Virus record (IMG/VR): IMGVR_UViG_3300033987_000026
Reading direction: 5' to 3' (one strand)
Length of the DNA stretch: 56,984 nucleotides
Origin: a virus
Positions 12,577 to 52,231 of the stretch are shown here, one piece after another. Each line of letters opens with the position of its first letter. Position 1 is the first letter of the stretch. The notes under the pieces were generated by a model, which saw nothing but the letters and a program-made list of their open reading frames with translations, was not told where the DNA came from and ran no database searches. Made by a program: the position numbers and the translations under genes.

Positions 12577-12603
12577 AAAATGATAGCGTGGAGGAGTGGA
12601 AAT

Positions 12604-14235
12604 ATGGCCAAGAAAAAGGCGACAAATACCTTCATCGAGATTGACTACTCAACCGAGGCAACACCGAGGGCAGTAACACCGGATGGAATTCCGGTTTTCT
12701 GTGCTTATGATGATATCATTCCGATTGAGAAGGCAATCCCGAACCCCAAGAACCCGAACCAGCACAGCCAAGCTCAAATAGAGCTGCTGGGGAACATCAT
12801 CAAAGCAAACGGATGGAGAGTAGCGGTCACCATTTCAAAGAGGAGCGGCTTCATTGTCAAAGGACATGGCCGACGCCTGGCAGCGCTTTATATCAAGAGC
12901 GGATACATCCCGGTAGATTACCAGGACTACACCAACGAGGCTGAGGAATGGGCCGACCTCATAGCAGACAACAGACTGGCAGAGCTCTCAACCATGGATA
13001 CGGGAATGCTGGTCGATTTAATAAACGAAATGGACACCGGCGAGGTACCGGTGGAAATGACCGGCTACACCGAGGAGGACCTGGCGGCCATCATAGCAGC
13101 TCTGGAAGGAGCAGACGACACGGTGGACGACAAGGTCGACGATGTACCGGAGGCACAAAACATACCAATGACCAAGGCCGGAGACATCTGGTTCCTTGGA
13201 CCACATAAACTGCTATGCGGCAGCGCAACCGATAGAGAGGCCATCGAAAAGCTGATGGCCGGAGAAAAAGGCCAAATGGTCAACACAGATCCACCATACG
13301 GAGTAAGCTACGAAACCCAGAGCGGTAAGTTTGACATGATCAAGAACGACGATCTCACCGGCGACGATTTAATGGCCGGCCTTCTGATACCTGCATTTAA
13401 GAATTATGTGGAGTTCACGGATCCGGACGCAGCCTTTTATATCTGGCATGCCAGCAGCACCAGGCGAGACTTTGAGGACGCCATGACAGCTGCAGGCCTC
13501 ATCGAAAAGCAATACATCATCTGGGTAAAGAACGCACCGGTACTGGGCCATGCAGACTACCAATGGGCGCATGAACCGTGTTTCTATGCAGAGAAAGCAG
13601 GCCAGAGCGCCCACTTCTACGGAGACAGATCGCAAAGGACCACCTGGAAAGTAGTCCTCCGGGATAGCAACCACATGGCAACGGTTCTCACAGGAGGTGT
13701 CGTATTGACCGATGGAGCAGGAGGAAAGGTATTCCTCAATGATAAGCCACCAAAGGGCAAGAAGATCAGGTATATACGCTTAAGCGAAGGCAAGAGCGTC
13801 TGCCTGTATCCGGAGAGCAAAGCCTCCACAGTCTGGGAAGTAGCCAGAGAAACCGGTACAGAGCACCCGACACAAAAGCCGGTAGAACTTGCAATCAGAG
13901 CCATAGACAACAGCAGTAAACCAGGAGACCTTGTGCTTGACTTCTTCGGAGGTTCCGGGAGCACACTTATAGGAGCTGAAATGACCGGCAGGCGATGCAA
14001 CATGGTGGAGCTGGATCCAAGATACTGCGATGTGATCATTAACCGGTATGTGCGTTTTACAGGAAATATCGGAGTGACCTGCCTGCGAGATGGCCAGGAG
14101 CTGACATATATGCAGCTTAAGCAGGAGAACGACAAGCTCAATGGCCTTGCGGGGGGGTACAGAATAGTGATATTTAAGGCAAGGTGCACATTGACCCGAT
14201 TTATTCGTTTCATAGACAAAATATTCAGGAGATAA
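12604..14235 (+). CDS. ParB-like nuclease domain fused to an N6/N4 DNA methyltransferase
   Basis: N-terminal PNPKNPNQHS...KGHGRRLAA. TDPPYG motif IV followed by LDFFGGSGST motif I. Confidence 0.85.
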   Translation: MAKKKATNTFIEIDYSTEATPRAVTPDGIPVFCAYDDIIPIEKAIPNPKNPNQHSQAQIELLGNIIKANGWRVAVTISKRSGFIVKGHGRRLAALYIKSGYIPVDYQDYTNEAEEWADLIADNRLAELSTMDTGMLVDLINEMDTGEVPVEMTGYTEEDLAAIIAALEGADDTVDDKVDDVPEAQNIPMTKAGDIWFLGPHKLLCGSATDREAIEKLMAGEKGQMVNTDPPYGVSYETQSGKFDMIKNDDLTGDDLMAGLLIPAFKNYVEFTDPDAAFYIWHASSTRRDFEDAMTAAGLIEKQYIIWVKNAPVLGHADYQWAHEPCFYAEKAGQSAHFYGDRSQRTTWKVVLRDSNHMATVLTGGVVLTDGAGGKVFLNDKPPKGKKIRYIRLSEGKSVCLYPESKASTVWEVARETGTEHPTQKPVELAIRAIDNSSKPGDLVLDFFGGSGSTLIGAEMTGRRCNMVELDPRYCDVIINRYVRFTGNIGVTCLRDGQELTYMQLKQENDKLNGLAGGYRIVIFKARCTLTRFIRFIDKIFRR

Positions 14236-16978: not shown

Positions 16979-18379
16979 ATGGCTAACAATAATTTCAGGG
17001 AAATCGGCCGCATCGGACAAAAAAGATATGGTGGCTTTTTCTATGAGGAATTCCTGAAAGATCTCCAGGGAAGGAAAGGCGTCGAGGTTTACAAAGAGAT
17101 GAGTGAGAACGACGATGTAATCGGCGCAATCCTTTATGCGATCGAGATGTTAATCAGGCAAGTATCCTGGATGGTTCAACCGGGAGGACCCACAGCAAAG
17201 GATGAGGAAGCTGCAGAGTTCATCTACCAATGTATGGACGATATGCAGGATACCTGGACCGATACCATATCGGAAATCCTTTCATTCCTGACATATGGAT
17301 GGAGCGCTCACGAAATCGTGTATAAGAGGCGCGCCGGCAAGAGTAAGGATCCGCGACTAAACAGCAAATACAGCGATGGTCTCATAGGATGGCGCAAGCT
17401 GCCAATCAGAGCCCAGGAAACCCTCTGGGAATGGATATACGACGATGAGGACAATCTCCTCGGAATGATCCAGATGCCACCGCCAAAGTATGAGCTCATC
17501 ACGATACCGATTGAAAAACTCTTAATCTTCAGAACCAAGAGCAGGAAAGGCAGCCCGGAAGGAAAGAGTATTCTCCGTAACGCATATCGCAGCTGGTACT
17601 TCAAGCGCAGGATCCAAGAGATAGAGGGAATAGGTATCGAAAGAGATCTGGCTGGTTTCCCGGTATTGACAGCTCCGGAAAGAATGAATATCTGGGACGA
17701 GGACGACCCGGAAATGGAAGCAATCAGGATGGCTGCTGACAGGATCGTTCAAAACATAAGGCGAGACAGCATGGAAGGCTTGACATTACCGGCTGGATGG
17801 AAACTGGAACTATTGAGCACAGGAGGACGCCGCCAGTTTGACACTAATGCAATCATTGAAAGATACGACACCAGGATAGCAATGACCGTCCTGGCCGATT
17901 TCATTTTGTTAGGTCACCGGAAGGTGGGTAGCTTTGCATTATCCAGCGACAAGACGGAACTCTTTGCAATGGCCGTCGGAGCTTATCTGGACATTATCTG
18001 CGAGACTTTCAACAACAAAGCAATCCCGGCGCTGATTGATTTAAACGCTCAACACTTCGCAGGTATTACCGATTATCCGACACTGCAGCACGGAGACATT
18101 GAAAGCGCAGACATTCAGGCTCTGGCTTCTTACATCAAGGATATGACTGGCGTCGGTGTGCTGGTACCGGACGACCATCTCGAAGATTACGTGAGAGAAG
18201 TGGCCGGCCTGCCAGAAAGGCTGGATGATGGAACTAACCCAAGGCAGCCAAGACCGGCACGGAACAACAATTCTGATGTGAAGCCAGGCAAAGAGGCAGA
18301 CAACGACAACCTGGGAGATTTGGAGGACGATGAGGAAGCTGTAAAGAAGGCCAAGGAACGACTGGGGAGGTACGATTGA
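16979..18379 (+). CDS. Portal protein (DUF935 / Mu gp29-like)
   Basis: Size, position and YKEMSENDDVIGAILYAIEMLI-type N-terminal region. Followed by the MuF gene. Confidence 0.8.
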   Translation: MANNNFREIGRIGQKRYGGFFYEEFLKDLQGRKGVEVYKEMSENDDVIGAILYAIEMLIRQVSWMVQPGGPTAKDEEAAEFIYQCMDDMQDTWTDTISEILSFLTYGWSAHEIVYKRRAGKSKDPRLNSKYSDGLIGWRKLPIRAQETLWEWIYDDEDNLLGMIQMPPPKYELITIPIEKLLIFRTKSRKGSPEGKSILRNAYRSWYFKRRIQEIEGIGIERDLAGFPVLTAPERMNIWDEDDPEMEAIRMAADRIVQNIRRDSMEGLTLPAGWKLELLSTGGRRQFDTNAIIERYDTRIAMTVLADFILLGHRKVGSFALSSDKTELFAMAVGAYLDIICETFNNKAIPALIDLNAQHFAGITDYPTLQHGDIESADIQALASYIKDMTGVGVLVPDDHLEDYVREVAGLPERLDDGTNPRQPRPARNNNSDVKPGKEADNDNLGDLEDDEEAVKKAKERLGRYD

Positions 18380-21300
18380 TGTTCAGGATCCGGAAATCAA
18401 TACACCTGCACCCGATATACAAGGCAAAAAAGAAAAGCAAAGCAGCACAGGAGGTCCTCGATAAATTAAATGCCTTCCTGGATGCAACGGAGCCCGAACC
18501 GGTGTTTTTCCTCACCAGGCTATGGAAGGACCAGCAGCAGGCCATAACATATAAGGAATTAAGAGAGGCAATTCTCAACGGTTACATCGACGAAAAGACC
18601 ATCCAGGCCTGGCAGAACGACTACGCGAACTTTGTGAACGAGCATCTGAAACCTTTATGGATAGAGGCTATGCAGGCAGCCAATGAAGATTTGATGGCAG
18701 CACATCCGGAATATTTCTTCGACCCAATGAGCCAGGGTGTCCTTAAGTGGATCAACGAACATGGAGCACAATGGGTAACGGTAATAGCGGAGGAGCAGAA
18801 AGAAGCAATATCGGCCATGCTGCAGCATGCATACAGCGGAGCCTTCACCGTTGACGAGCTGGCCAGAGCGATCCGTGCGACGATAGGCCTGAATAAGGTC
18901 CAGGCCAAGGCCAACCTGAACTACTATCAGCATGTGAAGAAAACTCTCCTGGAAAACAACCCAGGCATGAAGGAATCAACGGCCCAGAAAAAAGCCCAGG
19001 AGGCAGCAGCGAAATACGCGGCCAAGCAGCATAGGCAAAGAGCTTTCACTATAGCCACAACTGAAATGGCCTTTGCTTACAACAAGGGAGCTGACGAAGG
19101 CATAAAGCAGGCCCAGGAGCAGAACCTCATAGGCAAGGTGGTGAAAGTTTGGAGCACAGCTGCAGATGAAGGTGTATGCTCTATATGCGGAGCGTTGGAC
19201 GGCGTCGAAGTGGAAATGGGCGCTGATTTTGATTTCAAAGGCAACGAGCTATACAGCGGCCAGAAGGAAACCCCACCGGCGCATCCACGCTGCAGATGCG
19301 CGCTGCTTTATGTAGAGAAGGAACCGCCGAAATATAAGACGGTGCCTGATCAAGAAGTGATCCAGAACTGGAACCCGGAAGATCAGATGCCGACACCGGA
19401 GCCTCCGGACCCAGCAAAACCAGTGATACCGCCGGCGGAGAAAATGCCACCAGGCATGAAATACAAAGGAAAAGCAAACCTCGGAGGAACCGGAGAAATG
19501 CACTTATACGTCGATGAGACCGGCCAGGAATGGCTATTCAAACCGGCACAAAGCAAAGCTGGAAAACCAGAAGCCTTCAGGGCATACGTCCAGGAGGCCG
19601 GATATAAGGTCCAGGCGATAATAGATCCAGACACAGCGGTACCGGTAGGAACTGGAGAACTGGGCGGCAAGTTTGGAGCCTTTCAGAAGAGAATAACCAC
19701 CGTCAACGACAAGATAGACCTGAAGCACTGGCAATACACCAGCGACCAGCTGCCACCGGGAACAGCCGCACAACTACAGAGAGAGCATGTAACCGACTGG
19801 CTACTGGCCAACTTTGACAGCCACGGTGGCAATTTCGTAATGGACGACGCCGGCAGGCTTATAGGAACAGACAAAGAACAGGCCTTCAGGTACATCAAGG
19901 AAATAGGCGCCCAGCAGATGAGCTACACATACCACCCAAACGCAACCTACGGGGAAACAGAGCCGATTTATAATACCTTATTCCGGAGGTTTGCAAAGGG
20001 AGAAATAGATCTGGATCTGCAGGATACATTGACTTACATCAAGAGAGTGGAGGCAATCCCAGATAACCAGTACCGGGAAATATTCAGAGACTATGCCGAA
20101 GCTCTATATGGGAAAGGCAAAGAAGCAGAGGAGCTGCTGGACCTGATCGTCGAGAGAAAAAACCGGTTAAGAGAAGACTACCGTCAATTTTTCAGCGACC
20201 TTCTCACAGAGCGAACCGGTAAAAAACAAGTGTTCGTCTGGGCAGACGAGGCTGCAGAGCATATGAAACAGCCACTAACGGCAGTAACACACAGCCCGGA
20301 AACCCTGCAAAAGATGAACATGGCAGAGCTTAAGCAACTGGCCAAACAAAAGCAGATCCCATACTACAACAATATGAATAAGACCCAGCTGATAACAGCT
20401 ATATCGGACCCGGTAAAAGCACCAGAAATGAGCGCCCAGGTAAGAAATAGGCTGCTGGCCAACGAGGCAGCCAGGAAAGCTGCAGCAAGAACACCAGCAG
20501 CGCAGAAGGCCAAAGAAATCGTATCTGCAGATGAAATATTCAAAGACGCCTCAATCATTCCGGAGAAAAAACTGGGCATTCCGGTCAGGAGCGACAAGGG
20601 CAGCGTTGAAGGCCTCAATTTAACGGCCAGGAGGATGCGCATATTAGACGACGCAAGCGGTACCGAATATGAGGTATACGAAATATCCGGAAAACTCACC
20701 AGGGAAGCATGGTCCAAGACATGGGATAAAATGAAGCCAATAGGAGAAATAGGAGAGCTGGAATTTGAGCTTGCAGACGATGTCAAAAAGCTCTTTGCTT
20801 CCAAGGCGGACCTCGGAGCTTCCATCCGGACCATAAAGGTAACCGACGGAGAAACCACATTCGAGCTTTATATCGATGGCCAGACAAGGAGATACAATGG
20901 ATGGCGTGGTTTTTTCAGATTGAGAACTCCGGTAACCTCAAACGGAGCTGCGGACGCTGCAAATATGAGAAACATGCTGCAGAAGCTGGAGCTTGATGAT
21001 CTTTTATTGAAACCGGACAGCGAGGCAGAAACGATCCTCAAAAAGAGCCGGCTTGTATGGCAACACGCTCCACATCGTATCCAGGAATTAGATGGTTTGA
21101 CGCCAGAGCAAATACCGATTAAACTGGATATGATATTAAAGCAAGAAGGAATAGACCCGAAGCGTATAAATAACATGAAGCTGGTTAAAGTCTTCGAAGG
21201 CTATTCAACTTATGTCGAAGAGGGCATCGTGGAAACATACAAGAAGGCAGGCCTGAAATATGTCTGGACCGGAGTTCCGGACGGAGACGACATCGTGAAG

Positions 21301-21798
21301 ATCATCCAAAGCCCTGGCCTGATGTCAAATAACAACCGTTTCAGGGCAGGATTGAGGCGCACAGGAGCAAGTCCGGTAGAAGACTTCCGGACCGGCGGCA
21401 GCGATAATGTATTCACCAGGATAGGCGTCAAGAATAAGAACAACCCAAGATTTGACGACTGCTACCGAGGGAACCGATATCGCATTCTTATTGATCCAAA
21501 AGTCATGGAGAGAACCGACTGGTATGCATATGAAGGAGACTCGTTCGGAAGCTCGGATCCGTCGGCACTGGCCGGCAGGCTTTCGCCGGTGGAATTTATT
21601 CAGAGAATGGCCACAAGCTACCGGTACGGGAACGAAATCATGTTCAGGCACGGAATAGCTAAGGAGACATTCATCGGGATATCATGCCAGAGCAACGCGC
21701 TCCGAGCAGAGCTCCTGGAGAAGTTCAAACAGGCGCATATTACTGCAGTAAACGGGATACCGATAGAAGATTTTGTAAAGGTGGGATCTACGATATGA
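18376..21798 (+). CDS. MuF/SPP1 gp7-like head morphogenesis domain fused to a large multi-domain extension (polyvalent virion protein)
   Basis: MuF motif KVWSTAADEGVCSICG...PPAHPRCRCAL (aa 256-310). Pro-rich linker. Kinase-like LFKP...DSHGGNF...GTDKE (aa 361-580). SAP/Rho_N-like aa 646-678. Unassigned C-terminal ~440 aa. Confidence 0.85.
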   Translation: MMFRIRKSIHLHPIYKAKKKSKAAQEVLDKLNAFLDATEPEPVFFLTRLWKDQQQAITYKELREAILNGYIDEKTIQAWQNDYANFVNEHLKPLWIEAMQAANEDLMAAHPEYFFDPMSQGVLKWINEHGAQWVTVIAEEQKEAISAMLQHAYSGAFTVDELARAIRATIGLNKVQAKANLNYYQHVKKTLLENNPGMKESTAQKKAQEAAAKYAAKQHRQRAFTIATTEMAFAYNKGADEGIKQAQEQNLIGKVVKVWSTAADEGVCSICGALDGVEVEMGADFDFKGNELYSGQKETPPAHPRCRCALLYVEKEPPKYKTVPDQEVIQNWNPEDQMPTPEPPDPAKPVIPPAEKMPPGMKYKGKANLGGTGEMHLYVDETGQEWLFKPAQSKAGKPEAFRAYVQEAGYKVQAIIDPDTAVPVGTGELGGKFGAFQKRITTVNDKIDLKHWQYTSDQLPPGTAAQLQREHVTDWLLANFDSHGGNFVMDDAGRLIGTDKEQAFRYIKEIGAQQMSYTYHPNATYGETEPIYNTLFRRFAKGEIDLDLQDTLTYIKRVEAIPDNQYREIFRDYAEALYGKGKEAEELLDLIVERKNRLREDYRQFFSDLLTERTGKKQVFVWADEAAEHMKQPLTAVTHSPETLQKMNMAELKQLAKQKQIPYYNNMNKTQLITAISDPVKAPEMSAQVRNRLLANEAARKAAARTPAAQKAKEIVSADEIFKDASIIPEKKLGIPVRSDKGSVEGLNLTARRMRILDDASGTEYEVYEISGKLTREAWSKTWDKMKPIGEIGELEFELADDVKKLFASKADLGASIRTIKVTDGETTFELYIDGQTRRYNGWRGFFRLRTPVTSNGAADAANMRNMLQKLELDDLLLKPDSEAETILKKSRLVWQHAPHRIQELDGLTPEQIPIKLDMILKQEGIDPKRINNMKLVKVFEGYSTYVEEGIVETYKKAGLKYVWTGVPDGDDIVKIIQSPGLMSNNNRFRAGLRRTGASPVEDFRTGGSDNVFTRIGVKNKNNPRFDDCYRGNRYRILIDPKVMERTDWYAYEGDSFGSSDPSALAGRLSPVEFIQRMATSYRYGNEIMFRHGIAKETFIGISCQSNALRAELLEKFKQAHITAVNGIPIEDFVKVGSTI

Positions 21799-22130
21799 TA
21801 GACCAAAGAGCTGTATACGTCTTCAAGCCACCGGGAGAAAGAGATTTCACCGGGATAGCGCTGGATGTTCACATTCACAAAGAGGCCCTCCGGTTCTTTG
21901 ACACCAACAGAGGACACGAGCTGCCAGGCAAAGTAACCCAGGAGACAGACAATGGATTTACATTCACATCAACGGGAATCATCCAGGGAGAATGGCAGTT
22001 CAAAGTTCTGGGAATTGGAGAGTTTAAGCGGAAATATTTCAAACTGGTCGAAGGCGGGCAAGCGCTGGCGGCCAAGCTACAAACCACAGAGGACCTCCAC
22101 CAATGGTATCGGAGGGAGTTCAAGATTTAA
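21795..22130 (+). CDS. Hypothetical protein translationally coupled to the MuF-fusion gene (candidate immunity/partner)
   Basis: ATGA start/stop overlap at 21795-21798. 111 aa with no recognised motif. Confidence 0.6.
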   Translation: MIDQRAVYVFKPPGERDFTGIALDVHIHKEALRFFDTNRGHELPGKVTQETDNGFTFTSTGIIQGEWQFKVLGIGEFKRKYFKLVEGGQALAAKLQTTEDLHQWYRREFKI

Positions 22131-22179: not shown

Positions 22180-22665
22180 ATGGCCAAGTTCAGCGACCTG
22201 GTGAGCATCAAGAAGGACCAACAGAAACCGGCCACACCGGCGAAATCTACATCAGGAGTGATAAAAGGTCGCTTCAAGATCCAGAAATCAGACGACGACA
22301 AAATGCTGGCCTTTGGCTGGGCCAATGTAGCGGTTACAGCCGGCGGCCAACAGATAGAGGACTACCACGAGGACATGATAGACCCGGAAGAGCTGGAGCA
22401 GGCTGCATACAAGTTCGTGGAGCTTTACCGGGAAGGCGGAGAGCAGCACGAGCGCGGAGGAGTGGCCGTGCTCATTGAAAGCATGGTATTCACCAAGGAA
22501 AAAATGAAGCTCCTGAACATTCCGGAAGGGACGCTGCCTGAAGGCTGGTGGATAGGCTTCAAGGTATTAGACCCGGACGTCTGGGAAAAGGTCAAGGATG
22601 GCACATATCCGATGTTCAGCATTGAAGGAGAGGCCATCCGGGAGGAAATCACCGAAGAGGAATAA
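22180..22665 (+). CDS. XkdF-like phage prohead serine protease (putative)
   Basis: FGWANVAV...EDYHEDMIDPEELEQAAYKF pattern resembling the XkdF family. Position upstream of scaffold and capsid. Confidence 0.6.
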   Translation: MAKFSDLVSIKKDQQKPATPAKSTSGVIKGRFKIQKSDDDKMLAFGWANVAVTAGGQQIEDYHEDMIDPEELEQAAYKFVELYREGGEQHERGGVAVLIESMVFTKEKMKLLNIPEGTLPEGWWIGFKVLDPDVWEKVKDGTYPMFSIEGEAIREEITEEE

Positions 22666-41604: not shown

Positions 41605-41927
41605 AGGTAATCGAAAAGAACGAAGGTCCTAAAATCGCTTACGAAGAAAACGGTACAATGGTATTTCTCGGCGATTACGAGCTCATGATCAACGTGGCCA
41701 AGTACCAAAGAGACTGGCCGGTGCACATTGATATTTGCCGCAATAGAGATAACCAACTGGTCATAGGCACAGGAGAGGGCCTGTACTATGTGGCACAACT
41801 TGATATACCGGCAATCAAATACACAGAACCAGAAACCGAAGAGGAAATCCCAGAGCCGCTACCTATCGACATGAGCGAGGTAGTTCTAACGCTTTGGAGC
41901 CTTGAAAACCTGGTACCGTCAAACTAA
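41601..41927 (+). CDS. Hypothetical protein
   Basis: ATGA overlap. 108 aa. Confidence 0.5.
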   Translation: MKVIEKNEGPKIAYEENGTMVFLGDYELMINVAKYQRDWPVHIDICRNRDNQLVIGTGEGLYYVAQLDIPAIKYTEPETEEEIPEPLPIDMSEVVLTLWSLENLVPSN

Positions 41928-41943
41928 AGGAGGACTGAACAAG

Positions 41944-43032
41944 ATGGCAAATTTTGATTTAGTGAAATTGGCACTAAAGGCGACATGCCCAGGAAACGAC
42001 GTATTGTTGGACGATAAAGGGCTACCCAGCGTCATGGTGCGTATTCCGAAGTTTAAGATTTCAGACGTAATCGCCGGAGGCAGCAACAGCACACATCCAG
42101 CGTTCATCGTTAATGGAATAGAAGTTCCGGAAATATACATTTCCAAATTCCAGAATGTAATCCATAACGGCAGAGCCTACAGCCTGCCTGGCGAGGACCC
42201 CAAGACAAGTATTAACTTCGACACAGCAAGACAGTATTGCGAGGCCAAGGGGCCCGGCTGGCATCTTATGACGAACGCCGAATGGGCGGCGTTGGCATTA
42301 TGGTGCCGCAAAAACAACCTTATGCCAAAAGGCAATAACAACTATGGGAAGGACTCGTCTGAAAGTACAGTAGTGGCAATTCCGACATCCGACTCAAACG
42401 GAGGATCCTATGATCCTGGCGATACAATCGGCAGAGTAGCCACTGGCACAGGCCCTGTAACTTGGAGCCACAACGGGGAAGTTACAGGCATCTGGGATTT
42501 AAACGGCAATGTATGGGAGTGGATAGGTGGATACAGAACGGTTAATGGAGAAATTCAGATATTGCCAAATAACGATGCTGCTGACGCAGACAACAGCCAA
42601 GCTGCAGACAGTACCAAATGGAAGGCAATCCTTCAGGATGGTTCACTTGTCGATCCTGGAACAGCCAACACCTTGAAATGGGATTATACTGCCGCACCGG
42701 CTGCTGGCGCAGCATTCAGGCTTAATACCACTGTCGCATACCCTCAAGCTGATGATACCCCTTATGGAGCAAACAGCTTTGCGGCATTGACAACAGCTTC
42801 TGGAGTAACAGTCCCAGAGATACTGAAAGCGCTCGCTCTATTTCCTGCGGACACTGGAGACCATGGTGGTGACTATATTTATATGCGCAACAACGGCGAA
42901 CGCCTCGCGTATCGCGGCGGCAACTGGTACAACGGTTCGGCGGCCGGTGTGTTCAGTCTGCACGGCGGCAATCCACGCTCGGGCGTCCACACGAGCATCG
43001 GGTTCCGCTCCGCTTTTATTCCGGGAATCTGA
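41944..43032 (+). CDS. DGR target: receptor-binding-type protein with FGE-sulfatase / C-type lectin-fold C-terminal domain
   Basis: WHLMTNAEWAALALW, GIWDLNGNVWEWIGG motifs. VR occupies codons near the C-terminus. Confidence 0.85.
   Translation: MANFDLVKLALKATCPGNDVLLDDKGLPSVMVRIPKFKISDVIAGGSNSTHPAFIVNGIEVPEIYISKFQNVIHNGRAYSLPGEDPKTSINFDTARQYCEAKGPGWHLMTNAEWAALALWCRKNNLMPKGNNNYGKDSSESTVVAIPTSDSNGGSYDPGDTIGRVATGTGPVTWSHNGEVTGIWDLNGNVWEWIGGYRTVNGEIQILPNNDAADADNSQAADSTKWKAILQDGSLVDPGTANTLKWDYTAAPAAGAAFRLNTTVAYPQADDTPYGANSFAALTTASGVTVPEILKALALFPADTGDHGGDYIYMRNNGERLAYRGGNWYNGSAAGVFSLHGGNPRSGVHTSIGFRSAFIPGI
42904..43014 (+). repeat. DGR variable repeat (VR)
   Basis: 111 nt matching TR except at 42928, 42942, 42961, 42967, 42968, 42982, 42983, 42988 and 42995. 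Confidence 0.9.
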
Positions 43033-43060
43033 TATCTGGAACCCTGAATATCTGATCATT

Positions 43061-43080
43061 AGGGAGCCGCAAGGCTCCCT
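43061..43080 (+). promoter_or_regulatory. GC-rich hairpin downstream of VR (candidate DGR homing element and/or terminator)
   Basis: AGGGAGCC-GCAA-GGCTCCCT, then TTCAATTTTC. Starts 47 nt after the VR end. Confidence 0.5.
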
Positions 43081-43106
43081 TTCAATTTTCAAGACGGAGG
43101 GATTAG

Positions 43107-43445
43107 ATGGAAGAGCTGAAGATACTGCAGAAGACATACGACATGATCATGTATGGAAACCAGTGTCTTCTGCAATTTCCCAGAGCAGAGCGATATGCAC
43201 TTGCAGCAGAGATTAAACAGAGCATGTATAAAATTTTGAGGCTTATTATCCAGGCAAACAAGCAGCGAAACAAGAGGCAACTTCAGATGGAAATAGACAC
43301 TGAGCTGGATGTATTGAGGACTTTTATCAGGCTTGCAGCAGATAAGCAAACCAAATATCTACCTCTCCGAAAGTATGAAATCTGGAGTAAGCAGCTGAAT
43401 GAAATTGGCAAGATGCTTGGAGGCTGGATCAAGGCAACAAATTAA
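43107..43445 (+). CDS. avd: DGR accessory variability determinant (Avd-like four-helix bundle)
   Basis: 112 aa, basic, helical. Located between the target and TR. Confidence 0.8.
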   Translation: MEELKILQKTYDMIMYGNQCLLQFPRAERYALAAEIKQSMYKILRLIIQANKQRNKRQLQMEIDTELDVLRTFIRLAADKQTKYLPLRKYEIWSKQLNEIGKMLGGWIKATN

Positions 43446-43483
43446 CCAATAACCATCGGGGATAGGTCGTTTAATTTGGGGAG

Positions 43484-43594
43484 CTCGCGTATCGCGGCGG
43501 CAACTGGAACAACGGTTCGGCAGCCGGTGTGTTCAGTCTGAACGGCAACAATCCACGCTCGAACGTCAACACGAACATCGGGTTCCGCTCCGCT
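43484..43594 (+). repeat. DGR template repeat (TR)
   Basis: Non-coding 111-nt copy of VR. Every mismatch position is A in this copy. About 24 adenines by manual count. Confidence 0.9.
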
Positions 43595-43777
43595 CTGCCC
43601 CCACACGTCAGAAGCCTGGCGCTCACGTGGCACCAGGACGGAACAGGGGGACAAAGGGATCTATCTCCGTGCCTTTTGAGACAGCAGAGGGCAAAAGATT
43701 GAATTGCCGAGAAGACGACCGGTAGGAAACGAAAGCCGCCACGCTCGGCGTAATCAACAATTCGGAGGGAGGTACAC
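43484..43777 (+). ncRNA. Putative DGR RNA (TR plus 183-nt spacer preceding RT)
   Basis: No credible ORF. By analogy with characterised DGRs the TR-spacer transcript templates and primes cDNA synthesis. Confidence 0.45.
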
Positions 43778-44866
43778 TTGGAAACACTACGAAATATTTA
43801 CCCCACCATTTATGACTTCGAGAACCTCCACAAAGCATACTTAAGCGCCAGAAAGAACAAGCGGTACCGAGGGGATGTACTGGAATTCACAGCAAACCTC
43901 GAAGAAAACCTTATCCAGCTGCAAAATGAACTGATTTATAAGACATACCAAGTAGGTAGGTACCGGGAGTTCTATGTTTATGAGCCAAAGAAAAGGCTTA
44001 TCATGGCCCTGCAGTTCAGGGACCGGGTAGTCCAATGGGCTATATACCGACACCTGAACCCATGGTTTGATAAGCAATTTATATATGACAGCTATGGATG
44101 CCGAGAAGGAAAAGGCACCCACCGTGCGGCGGATCGACTTCAATACTGGATGAGACAAGTAAGCAGAAAGGAGGGACGGTATTATTATTTAAAGCTGGAC
44201 ATTTCAAAATACTTCTACAGGGTGGATCATGGAGTTTTAATGAACATCCTCCGAAAGAAAATCGAAGACGAGGACCTACTGGATATACTCGAAAGGATAA
44301 TCAACTGCGAACATACAGCATTTGGCCTGCCGGCATTTATGGACCCAGAGGATTGTTCAAGGGAGGATAGGCTTTTCGACAAAGGAATGCCTATAGGCAA
44401 TTTGACCAGCCAGCTGTTTGCAAATATTTATTTAAACGAGCTGGACCAGTATGCAAAGAGGGAACTGCGGCTTCATTACTACATCCGATATATGGACGAC
44501 ATCATTATTTTACACAATGATAAGCAGTACCTCCAGGCGATAAAGGACGACATCGAGAACTTTCTATGGGAACGATTAAAGCTAAACCTAAATAAAAAGA
44601 CAGCGATCAGGCCAATAAGTCAAGGCATCGAATTTGTAGGCTTCCGGATCTTCCCCACCCATCGCAAACTGAAAAAATCCAGCGTAAAGAAAATGAAAGC
44701 CAGGCTGAAGTATGTCAGGTCCGCATACGAACGCGGCAAAATTGACGAGGAAAGCCTGCGGGCAACGGAGGCATCTTATCTCGGAGTAATGAAACATTTC
44801 AACAGCTATGGATTACGCAAAGCTCTGGGCTTTGTACCGGAGCAATCAGACGAGGGAAAGAGGTGA
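43778..44866 (+). CDS. DGR-type reverse transcriptase
   Basis: TTG start after GGAGGGAGG. LDISKYF, PIGNLTSQLFANIYL (SQ motif), IRYMDDIIIL catalytic box. Confidence 0.95.
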   Translation: METLRNIYPTIYDFENLHKAYLSARKNKRYRGDVLEFTANLEENLIQLQNELIYKTYQVGRYREFYVYEPKKRLIMALQFRDRVVQWAIYRHLNPWFDKQFIYDSYGCREGKGTHRAADRLQYWMRQVSRKEGRYYYLKLDISKYFYRVDHGVLMNILRKKIEDEDLLDILERIINCEHTAFGLPAFMDPEDCSREDRLFDKGMPIGNLTSQLFANIYLNELDQYAKRELRLHYYIRYMDDIIILHNDKQYLQAIKDDIENFLWERLKLNLNKKTAIRPISQGIEFVGFRIFPTHRKLKKSSVKKMKARLKYVRSAYERGKIDEESLRATEASYLGVMKHFNSYGLRKALGFVPEQSDEGKR

Positions 44867-48230: not shown

Positions 48231-48242
48231 GGAGGAATGAGA

Positions 48243-49163
48243 ATGAAGAATATAAGAGACAGAATCGCCGGCGCATTGTACGGCGTAGCAATAGGGGACG
48301 CATTAGGAGCTCCCCTGGAGTTCATGAGCAAGGAGGAGATTTCCAGGAAGCATGGCCGGGTAACAGAGATGATCGGAGGCGGCTGGCTGAACGTGATGCC
48401 AGGAGAGATCACCGACGACACACAGATGACCCTGGCAGTAGCTGAAGGAATTATAGAGGACCCGGACAACCCGATTAAGGCCATCGGTAAAAGGTTTATC
48501 GAATGGGCCAGGAGCGGACCGAAGGACATCGGAGGAACCTGCAGCATGAGTATCCGCTGGGCCATCTTCCTGGGCCAAAATGATGCGCCAGACGAAGAGA
48601 AATGGTTCGAGGCAAGTAAATATACCTCCAAAGCAAACGGAGGCCGTAGCGGCGGAAATGGAGCGCTTATGCGCACGGTTTACCCAGGTCTTTATTACAA
48701 GGATTTGCTGATGGCGGTAGAGACGGCCGGAGCCATAGCACAAATGACACACTGGGATAAAAAATCAACAGAGGCTTGTAATTTATACACGGAAATGATA
48801 CACTTAATTATCGAATCGGTTAATAAGGAACAGGCCCTGCAGATTATAAGAGACGTGCTCCAGGGAAGCGAATACTGCCTGGAAACCAGGAAGCAGCTCA
48901 ACCCCACCGGGTACGTCGTGGACAGTTTCAACTGCGTGCTCCACAGCATAGCAGCAACCGGGACCTTTGAGGAGGCCATAATCGAAGCCGCCAATCTTGG
49001 AGGAGACGCAGACACCATCGCGGCCATCACCGGCGGCCTGGCCGGAGCGATATACGGATACAACGAGATCCCGGAAAGATGGATCCAGGCCCTGGATCCG
49101 AAGATCAGGATGCAGCTCGACAAGCTCGTGGACGCAGCAGTAAAGAACAGGGAGGGCAGATAA
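48243..49163 (+). CDS. ADP-ribosylglycohydrolase family protein (DraG/ARH-like)
   Basis: GVAIGDALGAPLEF, GEITDDTQMTLAVAEG, GNGALMR, GGDADTIAAITGGLAGAIYG. Confidence 0.9.
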   Translation: MKNIRDRIAGALYGVAIGDALGAPLEFMSKEEISRKHGRVTEMIGGGWLNVMPGEITDDTQMTLAVAEGIIEDPDNPIKAIGKRFIEWARSGPKDIGGTCSMSIRWAIFLGQNDAPDEEKWFEASKYTSKANGGRSGGNGALMRTVYPGLYYKDLLMAVETAGAIAQMTHWDKKSTEACNLYTEMIHLIIESVNKEQALQIIRDVLQGSEYCLETRKQLNPTGYVVDSFNCVLHSIAATGTFEEAIIEAANLGGDADTIAAITGGLAGAIYGYNEIPERWIQALDPKIRMQLDKLVDAAVKNREGR

Positions 49164-49620: not shown

Positions 49621-50772
49621 CTAATTTTTTGAGATTTCTTTTTCTACTTTTTCGAGATCCAAAACGACTGCAGAAGGACTTTCATTTTTGATGGTAGCAT
49701 GCCGATTTAGATCAGCAGCAACCTGCTCCATCTTGTTTGGATACAGATGTGCATAGGTAGACATGGCCACCTCGACAGTATCGCCCAGGCGCTCGGCCAC
49801 AGCCACGATGGAATAACCCAGCTCAACCAGCAAGGCAGCATGAGAATGACGGAGATCATGAACGCGGATCCGTTTCACGCCGGCAGCCTTGGCCGCCTCA
49901 TTGAGAGCACGCCCCAGAGTTCCCTTCTGGAAGTAGAATATACGGTCGTGCTCGTCGATATCATACAGAGCATTGATATACCGCATGACCTCATCATAGA
50001 GGAAATCAGGCATTGAGACATCCCGGTAACTGTTGTCGGTTTTAGGAGGCCCGTTCTTATCCTGGCCTTTGCGCCGGTGGTGAGTTTTTTCAATGCGGGC
50101 AATCTTTGAGGGAAGGATATCGGCAGGCTGCAGAGCGAGGCACTCGCCTTCACGGAGGCCCAGCCAGTACATGAGCATAAAGGCAACACGGAAGCTCCAG
50201 TTTGTGACGTAAGCCATGGCCTGGTTAAATTCAGACAAGGTCCAGAATTTCATCTTCCCGGCCTTCTTTTTACCCATGAAGCCGGCAGGATGGCACGGAT
50301 TAGACTTCAGGTTATAGAACTTAACCGCATAATTGAAAATGGCCGACAGCCGGCTATTTAACGACCGGATATAGGTTTCAGAATACTTTTTACCGGTCCG
50401 AGGATTTATGGCAGACATGACGGTGTTCTGCCAGTTCCGGATCGTCACGGCGTCAATTTCATTCACCGGGAGCTCACCAAAGTAAGGGAGCAGCCACTTG
50501 TCGATGATGGAATCCTGCGTGCCCTGCGTACCTTCCCGGACACGATGCTCGGCGTCGGCCCGGTACAATTCCACCAGGGAGGCAAACGACATTTCACAGT
50601 TCCGGCTATTCTTCAGGAGAAATTCACGCTCGAAGGCCAGGGCATCTGATCGTTTATCGAACCCTTCTTTTTTCTTTTTTCGTCTCTTCCCAGTCCAATC
50701 AGTATACCAGAAGGCAGCAAGCCATTTTATAGCTCCGCTTTTAGTTTTGTATTTATAAACAGGCAATCGCAT
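49621..50772 (-). CDS. int: Tyrosine recombinase (phage integrase)
   Basis: HDLRHSHA...MSTYAHLY catalytic region. AAGGAGG RBS before ATG at 50772. Confidence 0.95.
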   Translation of the reverse strand: MRLPVYKYKTKSGAIKWLAAFWYTDWTGKRRKKKKEGFDKRSDALAFEREFLLKNSRNCEMSFASLVELYRADAEHRVREGTQGTQDSIIDKWLLPYFGELPVNEIDAVTIRNWQNTVMSAINPRTGKKYSETYIRSLNSRLSAIFNYAVKFYNLKSNPCHPAGFMGKKKAGKMKFWTLSEFNQAMAYVTNWSFRVAFMLMYWLGLREGECLALQPADILPSKIARIEKTHHRRKGQDKNGPPKTDNSYRDVSMPDFLYDEVMRYINALYDIDEHDRIFYFQKGTLGRALNEAAKAAGVKRIRVHDLRHSHAALLVELGYSIVAVAERLGDTVEVAMSTYAHLYPNKMEQVAADLNRHATIKNESPSAVVLDLEKVEKEISKN

Positions 50773-50831
50773 GCCTCCTTTCACAAAAGCCCCGGCCAGA
50801 AAGCAGGCCGAGGCTTATTTTCATTCGTTAT

Positions 50832-51187: not shown

Positions 51188-51763
51188 CTAAAGATCAGGA
51201 AACAATTCCTTCAAATACTCATAGTTTGCAGGAGACAGAGCCCGTGAAGTCAGAACACCCTGGAGCCAGAGCTCCATCCGGTTCTTGCGGCCACGCTCCG
51301 TTTTTAGCTGCGAAGCCTCTTCCCACGCGTGATCATAGGCACGCTTAAGGGCAGCATTAAATATCTGATCACGACGAGATCTGATATCCCGCAGCTGCGC
51401 TTTAAAATCATTTTGAGCCAGGCCGGCCAAAGCAAGATCAGCGTCCGAGGCCGACGCCAGCTGCTCCAGGAAATATTCCGCAGCAAAGAAACATGTAATA
51501 AACTGCTGAAAAACGAGAGAGGAACTCGCAGCATTAGAGAACTTCACAAAGGCTTCATAAACCCTTACAAGCCGGTGTTCCAGGAAGGATTCGTCCACCC
51601 AGGCAACAGCACACCGGCAACCATCATGTAGCGGAGGCTCCAGGACAGAATGCCCCGCAATTTCAAAAACCTCATCAATCCTCACGGCCGTGCCTTCCAG
51701 TTTAGCACAAAGCGAACAGGTGCAATCGTCGGCCGATGAAGACCACACCTTAAACATACCCAT
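51188..51763 (-). CDS. Stand-alone MuF-type Cys/His motif fused to an unknown helical domain (lysogeny-module cargo)
   Basis: FKVWSSSADDCTCSLCAKLEG...PPLHDGCRCAV parallels aa 256-310 of the 18376 ORF. AGGAGGG RBS. Confidence 0.6.
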   Translation of the reverse strand: MGMFKVWSSSADDCTCSLCAKLEGTAVRIDEVFEIAGHSVLEPPLHDGCRCAVAWVDESFLEHRLVRVYEAFVKFSNAASSSLVFQQFITCFFAAEYFLEQLASASDADLALAGLAQNDFKAQLRDIRSRRDQIFNAALKRAYDHAWEEASQLKTERGRKNRMELWLQGVLTSRALSPANYEYLKELFPDL

Positions 51764-51814
51764 GACCACCCTCCTCTCAATCCCAGAAGATAAAGTACCG
51801 CCGTAATTCGCGCT

Positions 51815-52231
51815 TTAAGCTTTCTCTTTGAAATCAACAACAGGCTCGGAGGACTTGATCTCTTCGAGCGTTTTCAACATGTCAATATATTCTGCGGCCT
51901 TCTCCTTTGCTTCAGGGGAAAGACTTTCAATTTTTTTAATAAGTTCTTTGTCGCCAGACGAAATCGCCTCGGCCATCTTCGGCTTTGACTTCGACGTACC
52001 ACATTTTGAGGATCTGGCTCGACCCATTTCATCGGATAGTCCCAGGATGAAATCGGCGGAGACGTCATAAAGCTCGATAAGAGCCCTAAGCGTTTCAGGG
52101 TCGGGTGTGGTTGCGTTATTCTCGTAGCGAGAAAGGGACTTATTGCTCAAGTTAATCGCCTTGTAGACATCAAGCTGAGTGAGACCTGCCCGTTCTCGAG
52201 CCATACGAAGACGTTCTCCAAAAGTGAGCAT
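51815..52231 (-). CDS. CI-like repressor (XRE-family HTH)
   Basis: FGERLRMARERAGLTQLDVYKAINLSNKSLSRYEN. Divergent from the cro-like gene. Confidence 0.85.
   Translation of the reverse strand: MLTFGERLRMARERAGLTQLDVYKAINLSNKSLSRYENNATTPDPETLRALIELYDVSADFILGLSDEMGRARSSKCGTSKSKPKMAEAISSGDKELIKKIESLSPEAKEKAAEYIDMLKTLEEIKSSEPVVDFKEKA

Follow-up and report, generated by a model that had tools for sequence, protein, structure and literature searches.

A MuF-anchored phage protein with predicted kinase and DarT-like ADP-ribosyltransferase domains and a small partner gene

The 56,984 nucleotides of the IMG/VR virus record IMGVR_UViG_3300033987_000026 (the window) belong to a temperate phage of anaerobic Firmicutes, whose head module encodes a MuF-fusion protein of 1,140 amino acids (aa) directly after the portal gene. 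Our analysis makes it probable that this protein is a virion-associated effector, in which the MuF domain anchors two predicted enzymes, namely a kinase of atypical type and an ADP-ribosyltransferase (ART) resembling DarT, and that it is accompanied by a cognate partner, encoded by a short open reading frame (ORF) overlapping its stop codon, and by a DraG-like enzyme which reverses the modification. Judging from the sequences of its relatives the architecture is not due to chance, since it is kept, at a length of ~1,120-1,150 aa, by more than 100 full-length homologues at 44-95% identity. A search with aa 331-1140 returned at least 240 proteins, and nearly all of the 120 listed have a length of 1,080-1,153 aa and the same architecture, apart from a few entries of 654-799 aa which look like fragments. 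These homologues originate from metagenomes and from metagenome-assembled genomes (MAGs) of Clostridia (Dysosmobacter, Negativibacillus, Peptococcia). The components are listed below together with the evidence used for their assignment.

18376..21798, plus strand: MuF-fusion (polyvalent) protein; ORF list, ribosome-binding site (RBS) GGGGAGG, homologues, AlphaFold2 (AF2) model with a mean predicted local distance difference test score (pLDDT) of 84
18418..19323, plus strand: MuF/SPP1-gp7-type head-morphogenesis domain (aa 15-316) with a CxxC...CRC core; Pfam, PHROG 2468 and 3517
19324..19455, plus strand: Pro-rich disordered linker (aa 317-360); weakly conserved, with a pLDDT under 50 for aa 320-328 and 338-346
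19456..20259, plus strand: predicted kinase domain of an atypical kind (aa 361-628; PI3/4-kinase, CtkA or HipA type); Foldseek, invariant residues, sub-threshold Pfam matches of relatives
20296..20406, plus strand: Rho_N/SAP-like helix-extended-helix motif (aa 641-677); Pfam PF07498, profile match to the Rho N-terminus (3l0o)
20521..20940, plus strand: beta-rich domain (aa 716-855), first half of the C-terminal module; AF2 pLDDT above 90
20944..21174, plus strand: helical connector (aa 857-933); AF2 secondary structure
21175..21795, plus strand: predicted DarT-like ART-fold domain (aa 934-1140); Foldseek, invariant residues, Pfam DarT matches of relatives
21795..22130, plus strand: 111-aa partner ORF; ATGA overlap, RBS, co-occurrence with the C-terminal module
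48237..49163, plus strand: DraG/Tri1-like ADP-ribosylglycohydrolase between lysis genes and integrase; Pfam PF03747, E=3e-65

Two predicted enzymes behind a MuF domain

The middle part of the protein is predicted to be a kinase of the atypical HipA/CtkA/PI3-4K kind; its catalytic set is intact, and it lies outside every curated family. A preliminary description of this DNA had suspected a kinase-like module from the motifs LFKP (K389), DSHGGNF (D481, H483, N486) and GTDKE (D499); all three lie where they had been placed, and K389, D481, H483, N486 and D499 show no variation in an alignment of 54 family members. The key residues comprise the Gly-rich loop G370-T-G373, K389, D481-x-H483-x-x-N486 and D499-K-E-Q. 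The suspicion is also borne out by structure comparison, as Foldseek searches of the PDB with the full-length model returned the catalytic subunits of PI3-kinases (p110, E~1e-4) and Helicobacter pylori CtkA (3akl_A, target-normalised template modelling (TM) score of 0.55 over 295 columns), followed by Stk1, RIOK2 and MAP kinases. At the sequence level, the kinase region of the window protein itself has no HipA or PI3_PI4_kinase match above the curated threshold, and a kinase profile run against PDB sequences gave chance matches only (e.g. an enoyl-ACP reductase and a tail needle protein).

Relatives of the kinase region were found by tblastn against GenBank phages within large virion proteins of mycobacteriophages (gp54 of prophiFSQJ01-1 and McProf, gp15/16 of Aikoy and Onyinye, gp195 of Phrappuccino), in which the kinase segment is preceded by a MuF-like N-terminus and followed by a C3-type ART (Pfam ADPrib_exo_Tox) at the C-terminus. 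An alignment of 14 kinase sequences, reaching down to 25% identity, has G371 of the Gly-rich loop, K389, W475, D481, G493, K500 and N522 invariant and H483, D499 and Q502 almost invariant. When these 14 relatives were scanned singly with Pfam, sub-threshold matches appeared to HipA_C (six sequences, best 7e-5), PI3_PI4_kinase (two, best 4e-4) and LepB_N (one); bit scores, listed for the kinase matches of Aikoy gp15 only, were below the gathering scores. Neither a HipA N-terminal domain nor a HipB partner was found, and the kinase is flanked instead by the Pro-rich linker and the Rho_N motif.

Since the kinase matches swamped the fold search with the full-length protein, the C-terminus was modelled alone. 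The C-terminal module comprises 425 aa, and the model of aa 712-1140 reached a pLDDT of 94.1 and a predicted TM score of 0.91. On the basis of this model the last ~210 aa are predicted to adopt a DarT-like ART fold: the best eight Foldseek matches in the PDB are all DarT and cover aa ~925-1140. They include DarT of Mycobacterium tuberculosis (7yk3, E=3e-4), the Thermus and Thermosipho structures (7omu, 7omv, 7omw, 7omx, 7omy) and DarT1 of Escherichia coli C7 with bound nicotinamide adenine dinucleotide (NAD+) (8baq, TM score of 0.61, root-mean-square deviation of 4.5 Å over 215 columns). Behind DarT in the list follows Tpt1 (7yw4, TM score of 0.59), with PARP1 further down. Neighbours among viral predicted structures include uncharacterised giant-virus proteins, a 588-aa 'minor capsid protein', and betabaculovirus ORF32 and iridovirus 422L, the last two of which we take to be members of the ORF28 family. 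This family is related to DarT (PMC9503650). The searches have therefore returned more than the structural folds that would have spoken against an effector, namely a kinase fold and a DarT-like ART fold.

A profile of the module was searched against 1.84 billion representatives of 50%-identity clusters, which yielded 2,214 proteins when E<=1e-3 was required and 1,432 when the limit was E<=1e-10, with lengths of 138-2,960 aa and the module in C-terminal, N-terminal or internal position; no Pfam model matches this family above threshold. In 54 module relatives (18-37% identity to their reference), R988, S999, G1007, R1015, R1046, D1048, D1055, G1058 and E1087 are invariant. E1087 lies within the motif N-E-I-M-F-R, where the Glu begins a strand ~53 residues from the C-terminus, and the invariant R1046-T-D1048/D1055 motif would, on the residue mapping proposed below, fall in the loop equivalent to the substrate-binding ARTT (ADP-ribosylating turn-turn) loop. 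The key residues of DarT1 are H17, R52, D54, S63 and E152 (PMC11543638). The distance between Arg and Ser is 11 residues in both proteins (R52-S63 and R988-S999), and that between Ser and Glu is 89 in DarT1 (S63-E152) and 88 here (S999-E1087). Because these spacings are equal or nearly so, we infer that R988, S999 and E1087 form the functional triad. The window protein has no match to Pfam DarT (PF14487); three relatives come close to the cut-off of 22.5 bits (P0230 with 21 bits, P0206 and P0293 with ~18 bits, the lowest being 17.7), and their alignments cover profile positions 142-190 of 201, i.e. exactly the strand 'N-E-I-M-M-R-R-G-I', with the invariant Glu at about position 153.

The preliminary description had, as a weak reading, seen an R-S-E triad of the Iota toxin type in R1015, S1059 and E1087. 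Of this, the ART fold and the invariant E1087 persist, and the Iota-like type and S1059 do not: S1059 is not conserved in the family alignment, and R1015, invariant as it is, is probably not the motif-1 arginine. An Iota/C3-type assignment was rejected, as hhalign against three C3-like ARTs (two mycobacteriophage proteins and one from the related phage L001) gave a probability of 1-2%, Pfam was silent for the PF03496 type and there are no strands between the proposed Ser and Glu. Likewise, taking the strand of R1015 (1011-1018) as beta1 would leave no beta3/beta4 between the proposed Ser and E1087. Strand 943-948 is a less likely beta1, too, as the aromatic-His motif of the wider family sits on strand 960-967.

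The beta-rich domain, which precedes the ART-like domain, is found together with it in most of the 2,214 clusters of the family. Its conserved motifs are D740, E745, Y768-E-x-x-G-K773 and F847-R-x-R850, and Foldseek gave only low-probability matches, to CalU16 (4fpw) and to 1yem and 2dc4, two uncharacterised archaeal proteins, which we take to be START-like and CYTH-like folds. The remaining parts of the protein agree well with what had been read from the letters. The MuF start of the ORF after the portal gene is confirmed by PF04233, which matches aa 208-310 with an E-value of 2e-9 and 38.6 bits (cut-off 29.6), and by PHROG head-morphogenesis families spanning aa 14-322 (E down to 3e-43). The Pro-rich linker appears as the poorly conserved stretch of aa ~317-360, and the SAP/Rho_N helix pair scores over the gathering threshold of PF07498 (aa 644-676, E=3.5e-7), which makes it a probable nucleic-acid-binding element. 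In the full-length AF2 model, disorder is limited to the N-terminal 14 residues and the linkers at aa 320-346, 629-638 and 698-711.

The small partner gene and the ADP-ribosylglycohydrolase

The fusion gene and the 111-codon small ORF are translationally coupled, as had been noted before: the ATG at 21795 overlaps the TGA of the fusion gene (21796-21798) in an ATGA, and AAGGTGGG lies 9-10 nt upstream. Among the 70 IMG/VR loci that carry the module with enough downstream sequence, all have the small ORF within ~100 nt of the module end, over a range of 96% to 32% identity and including a variant without kinase. On four independent contigs of distant relatives, the fusion gene is separated from that of the protease by a small ORF homologous to the one in the window (31-49% identity), and these distant versions share the C-terminus T-x-D-L-H-x-W-Y-R-x-x-F; all homologues have a length of 108-148 aa. 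For a comparison with phages lacking the extension, we used a portal-anchored sample of phages whose portal is 66-86% identical. In 29 of these loci, with at least ~4 kb read past the portal, the order is MuF-kinase-module-small ORF; in another 22, the MuF protein has only 310-355 aa, and kinase, module and small ORF are unmatched in the 4.4-4.5 kb downstream. In about half of the 22, the ORF sizes clearly show that MuF is directly followed by protease, scaffold, cement protein and major capsid protein, and the short-MuF loci are, as far as gene order and homology tell, the same head module minus the cassette. The small ORF is thus present in 29/29 loci with the extension and in 0/22 short-MuF relatives (Fisher p=6e-15, ignoring phylogeny), so that the earlier reservation that it might be a general head-assembly gene of phages with unextended MuF proteins no longer holds.

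This distribution fits a dedicated chaperone or packaging adaptor of the C-terminal module, which keeps it folded or unfolded for procapsid entry, equally well as an immunity protein. For such a chaperone next to genuine enzymes also speak the strict adjacency, the translational coupling and the position within the operon for head morphogenesis, immediately ahead of the prohead protease gene. On the other hand, the small ORF evolves faster than every domain of the fusion protein, which is typical of immunity proteins. Mean identity to the window is 53% for the small ORF in comparison to 72% for the kinase, which is the best-conserved part of the fusion, 63% for MuF, 59% for the ART and 56% for the beta domain, and its divergence correlates most closely with that of the helical and ART parts (rho 0.91-0.92 versus 0.74 for MuF). 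Furthermore, lone homologues with 62-72% identity occur in the early or replication regions of seven viral contigs, beside DUF5131, a Phd antitoxin, a RecD2 helicase and a DnaC-like loader, and no MuF, kinase or ART ORF lies upstream, hence there is no client for a chaperone. Additional lone copies abut the host pur operon at prophage edges, in Thermoanaerobacterium saccharolyticum and in a Firmicutes MAG, both beside a Fic gene; a 172-aa integrase fragment is the sole recognisable phage gene in the stretch read of the MAG locus, which suggests a degraded prophage. Genes for MuF, kinase or ART are likewise missing from the vicinity of these copies. An effector that always has its partner and a partner that is sometimes alone form a signature of the toxin-immunity type and argue against a pure packaging chaperone. 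We therefore consider the chaperone explanation rather unlikely and the small ORF a candidate for the cognate immunity protein or inhibitor of the ART module.

The surroundings of the orphan copies look like small accessory or defence islets. In the orphan loci (L030 5814..10333; L032 8354..10333; L024/L027 3182..5336), DUF5131 is present in four of five, L032 being the one without it, Fic is present in the two genomic loci, and the small ORF of L024 adjoins a Phd/YefM antitoxin.

A second gene that connects the locus to ADP-ribose is the ADP-ribosylglycohydrolase, whose metal-binding Asp motifs are intact. Its closest solved structures are DraG (2woc, 5e-48) and Tri1, the immunity protein of Tre1 (6dre, 9e-37), both of which we take to be arginine-ADP-ribose hydrolases. 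A tblastn search with four C3/VIP2-type ART queries identified no further ART of that kind in the window. By intersecting the contig names among the best 80 matches of module and hydrolase, we found both on at least 13 viral contigs, including nine of the ten module contigs of at least 55 kb in these lists. The identity of the module goes down to 34-37% on such contigs, and the distance between the two genes is 25-30 kb on 11 of the 12 tabulated. Among portal-anchored contigs of at least 30 kb, the hydrolase occurs in five of 12 with the module and in none of ten with a short MuF (p=0.04). Domains of the ADP-ribosylhydrolase (ARH) type are reported to be rare in phages (PMC9503650).

From these observations a mode of action can be outlined. 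The MuF domain would target the fusion protein to portal and procapsid, as is established for SPP1 gp7, with flexible linkers holding the cargo of atypical kinase, Rho_N/SAP motif and the two-domain module that ends in the DarT-like ART. The protein would be packaged in the head, possibly with trimming of the linkers by the neighbouring XkdF protease, and would enter the next host together with the DNA, where the kinase would phosphorylate and the ART, using NAD+, would ADP-ribosylate macromolecules of the host or of rival phages. The 111-aa protein, made stoichiometrically by translational coupling, would most likely bind and silence the ART in the producing cell, as Bsi does for Bxa. The hydrolase near the integrase would most likely reverse stray ADP-ribosylation, as BAH does for Bxa, and its type hints at a protein arginine as target.

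Several points weigh against this interpretation. The window protein has no sequence-level match to any kinase or ART family (Pfam, NCBIfam, PADLOC etc.), and direct searches with the full protein or the alignment gave nothing for aa 360-640 or 700-1140 in Pfam, PHROGs, NCBIfam, PADLOC and PDB sequences. The equivalence to the DarT residues rests on spacing and a partial hidden Markov model (HMM) alignment. The motif-1 strand, which is 960-967 and beta1 on this mapping, mostly carries an aromatic-His motif ('..Y-H..') in the wider family, but the His of H-x-T, which contacts the adenosine ribose in DarT, is Thr964 here; the position is variable in the subfamily, with no majority residue in the family consensus and a His in one member, P0104. 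In consequence, NAD+ binding is not assured. For the small ORF, searches of Pfam, PHROGs, NCBIfam and PADLOC gave no match, and it has no recognisable fold. More than 100 full-length homologues (44-95% identity) all retain the same extension, so that close relatives have no polymorphic C-terminus of the kind which varies in classical polymorphic toxins. The hydrolase lies 26 kb from the fusion gene, and the co-occurrence of the two, supportive as it is, may partly reflect the shared ancestry of one phage lineage. Moreover, the known reversers of DarT are macrodomain or NADAR proteins and not of the ARH type, and a DarT-like fold next to a DraG-like partner points to different substrate classes: by analogy, the fold hints at nucleic acid (DarT, Tpt1) and the hydrolase at protein arginine.

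The missing motif-1 His and the lack of any curated enzyme family above threshold would also fit catalytically dead scaffolds, i.e. kinase-like and ART-like folds which merely help to build the head, for instance as part of an internal or ejection protein. We regard this as barely credible, given that conservation is focused on K389, D481, H483, N486 and D499 as well as on R988, S999 and E1087 across 18-45% identity, that the best-conserved part of all is the kinase, and that a NUDIX fusion together with the ARH companion ties the module to NAD/ADP-ribose chemistry. In this fusion (P0184), the NUDIX domain (aa 715-820) lies directly upstream of the module.

The likeness to DarT and Tpt1, which modify nucleic acids, and the Rho_N/SAP motif placed between the two enzymes could also mean that the extension acts on the phage itself, for instance by ADP-ribosylating or phosphorylating its DNA ends or head proteins in the course of assembly or ejection, for protection from restriction or control of ejection, with the Rho_N/SAP motif binding the packaged genome. 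SPP1 gp7 binds DNA and affects ejection. However, a sealed capsid offers neither NAD+ nor ATP, the module also occurs in large proteins in which no phage domain is detected (a Deltaproteobacteria MAG encodes one of these), and the obligate partner, its orphan copies and the DraG-like hydrolase resemble protection from a toxic activity, which makes such a self-directed role very unlikely. A more far-reaching proposal, which we put forward as a speculation with the odds clearly against it, is that the kinase-(Rho_N)-beta-ART cassette and its ~110-aa partner constitute an undescribed and widespread two-enzyme system, in which the injected DarT/Tpt1-like enzyme ADP-ribosylates nucleic acid (DNA or RNA of the host or of rival phages) rather than protein. 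The kinase would act in concert, perhaps creating or exploiting a phosphorylated acceptor, an idea based on the action of Tpt1-type enzymes on phosphate groups. If it is true that the ART modifies nucleic acid, the locus would be a phage-borne counterpart and mirror image of the DarTG defence.

Cassette behaviour and comparison with known systems

Local HMMs of MuF, kinase and module were run on the 146 module representatives listed. The kinase is present in 31 of them, always upstream of the module and in proteins of up to 2,960 aa, and the order kinase-then-ART is also found in proteins without a match to the MuF profile of this family. MuF is present in 11 of the 146, and three of these (P0158, P0160, P0163) combine MuF and module without a kinase; the IMG/VR locus L120 has the same kinase-less form. 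Pfam searches on 13 large module relatives gave no family at E up to 0.01 for the first six and for four of the other seven. The remaining three have NUDIX plus a weak HipA_2 match, MuF, and MuF with an intein plus Rho_N, respectively; the intein (aa 188-435 of P0174) is inserted in the MuF domain. In P0229, P0222, P0203 and P0195 the module is N-terminal or central in proteins of ~900-1,200 aa without any Pfam domain, and one of these, MBI2375204.1, derives from a Deltaproteobacteria MAG. Judging from such sequences, the family may reach beyond phages.

Other cargo is found at the same site. Three loci with a portal of 81-83% identity (L231, L232, L234) carry an unrelated 1,110-aa ORF in the slot of the fusion gene, ~70..3400 nt past the portal end, which matches none of the MuF, kinase and module HMMs and may be a different polyvalent protein. 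In L001 (10030..11773, the context of P0114) and also in L002, two stand-alone ART genes, one with ADPrib_exo_Tox and one with a weak ART match, lie between the small ORF and the prohead protease, and this slot looks like a hotspot for ART cargo.

As a type, the architecture of a MuF toxin or polyvalent protein is already known. New are the family of HipA/PI3-4K-like predicted kinases in virion proteins, the large uncurated family of beta-domain plus DarT-like ART, the conserved pairing of kinase and then ART, the strict small partner with its orphan copies and the syntenic ARH. MuF-anchored effectors are thought to be a general route for temperate phages to deliver enzymes alongside their DNA, and only Bxa, Apk2 and EFV have been studied. 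The locus defines a conserved cassette, common in Firmicutes phages of gut and digester, with two predicted enzyme families without a Pfam model, and it gives access to over 2,000 clusters of uncharacterised proteins, including some large ones without a detectable phage domain.

The closest functional models are Bxa, a MuF-ART of a Bacteroides stercoris prophage with Bsi and BAH, the MuF-(p)ppApp synthetase Apk2, and EFV of Enterococcus faecalis (PMC11699363; PMC5576092). For the MuF toxins Bxa and Apk2, immunity proteins of an inhibitory and an enzymatic kind are encoded next to the toxin (PMC11699363), and an ORF of <150 aa comes directly after 89% of the genes for MuF toxins (PMC5576092). 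The window protein shares with these toxins the N-terminal MuF domain, the portal-adjacent gene in a temperate head module, the small ORF directly downstream, a predicted C-terminal effector fold using NAD+ and an ADP-ribosylhydrolase in the same phage (cf. BAH). In contrast, it has two enzyme domains rather than one, its ART is DarT-like and not an Arg-specific C3/VIP2-like R-S-E toxin, its effector part is conserved and not polymorphic, and its hydrolase is 26 kb off and not adjacent. In comparison to the MuF polymorphic toxins of Jamet et al. (2017), modularity is seen only at a deeper level, in the form of short MuF proteins and of MuF plus ART without kinase.

The protein might instead be a MuF polymorphic toxin whose main task, once lysis has released it, is competition or interaction with the host, as has been demonstrated for Bxa, rather than the reprogramming of the newly infected cell. 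The phage is indeed temperate, with integrase and cI-like repressor, and MuF toxins are almost confined to temperate phages (PMC5576092); released Bxa hits eukaryotic and bacterial targets (PMC11699363), and orphan immunity-like copies are typical of conflict between strains. Nevertheless, the fusion protein has no secretion or cell-entry domain, the effector part does not vary as a polymorphic one would (44-95% identity), and both the MuF anchor and the neighbouring portal gene speak for delivery by the virion, so that we regard the release of a toxin by lysis as improbable and the virion-delivered effector as the better description.

Like the polyvalent proteins (Iyer et al., 2017; PMC5512222), the window protein combines several effector domains on one polypeptide in a setting of virion genes, with MuF as the hub and ART and kinase as cargo. 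The kinases of polyvalent proteins are C-terminally truncated Ser/Thr/Tyr kinases from elements of Verrucomicrobia and Bacteroidetes or P-loop kinases of the zeta-toxin type (PMC5512222), in contrast to the HipA/PI3-4K/CtkA-like kinase predicted here, and the sole trace of the ART-PolyVal and LPD Pfam families is an LPD37 match of one relative (E=0.17). A literature search on MuF and HipA gave nothing relevant. The mycobacteriophage proteins named above, described as 'minor capsid and ADP-ribosyltransferase fusion' (gp54 of prophiFSQJ01-1 and McProf, gp15-16 of Aikoy/Onyinye), are similar in size (1,170-1,340 aa), have a MuF-like N-terminus (gp54) and a C-terminal ART, and share a homologous kinase-like middle part (26-35% identity, E down to 9e-29). 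Their ART, however, is of the C3/VIP2 type (ADPrib_exo_Tox) and unrelated in sequence, and the small ORFs downstream have only 48-57 aa.

DarT of the DarTG systems (8baq, 7omy, 7yk3; PMC11543638) is the best structural match of the C-terminal domain, with the Arg...Ser...Glu spacing of DarT1 and the Glu at the start of a strand. In contrast to DarT, Thr964 stands in the place of the motif-1 His, the loop resembling ARTT is shorter and has an invariant R1046-T-D1048/D1055 motif of its own, and the domain forms part of a virion protein, in which it is fused to a preceding kinase and beta-rich domain. An adjacent macrodomain or NADAR partner as in DarG was not matched by Pfam and PADLOC on the 111-aa ORF, and the sole ADP-ribose hydrolase found in the window is of the ARH/DraG type. 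With H. pylori CtkA and the HipA kinases, the middle domain has in common the kinase fold, the D-x-H-x-x-N loop, the downstream metal-binding Asp and the beta3 Lys; it differs in lacking a HipA N-terminal domain and HipB, in the similarity being sub-threshold and limited to relatives, and in being embedded in a virion protein. As a functional analogy, the head-packaged ART Alt of T4, which is processed by the prohead protease and injected, and the kinase gp0.7 of T7 are phage enzymes which modify proteins of the host as infection begins. Their folds and families are unrelated, and here both predicted activities reside on one MuF-anchored polypeptide of a temperate phage.

Gene neighbourhood of the fusion gene

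The fusion gene and the small ORF are framed by two genes of the head module:

16979..18379, plus strand: Mu-type portal protein; Pfam Portal_Mu, E=2e-41; its stop overlaps the fusion start
22180..22665, plus strand: XkdF-type prohead serine protease, the gene after the small ORF; Pfam Peptidase_S78_2, E=1e-27

In the ORF list, the fusion ORF (18376..21798) begins with a TTG. The true start is probably the ATG at 18379, giving 1,139 aa, since this ATG overlaps the stop of the portal gene in a TGATG (junction ...GAT TGA TGT...), is preceded by GGGGAGG 8 nt upstream and yields the length found in the closest homologues. Portal and fusion genes are followed in the head module by genes for the protease, a scaffold-like protein and the capsid; a megablast search of the head module against GenBank phages gave no match at the DNA level. 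The window also encodes RecT, terminase, lysis genes and a reverse transcriptase, and its temperate nature is evident from a tyrosine integrase (49621..50784) and a cI-like repressor (51815..52231).

Between these two lysogeny genes, a 193-aa ORF (51188..51769, minus strand) encodes only the CxxC...CRC core of MuF (Pfam MuF positions 66-111, E=9e-6; 34% identity to aa 257-316 of the fusion protein), followed by a helical tail. The product could be a MuF decoy expressed in the lysogen or an orphan cassette. Directly upstream of the terminase genes lies a 551-aa N6/N4 DNA methyltransferase (12580..14235, plus strand), whose N-terminal extension of ~200 aa appears ParB-like by eye, yet the Pfam scan gave no ParB domain; it occupies the same position in related phages (L001, L006). 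Finally, a reverse transcriptase (RVT_1, E=8e-26; 43778..44866) and a protein with an FGE-sulfatase/C-type-lectin fold (41902..43032) together form a probable diversity-generating retroelement (window 41902..44866, plus strand), with the lectin-fold protein as candidate variable receptor-binding protein.

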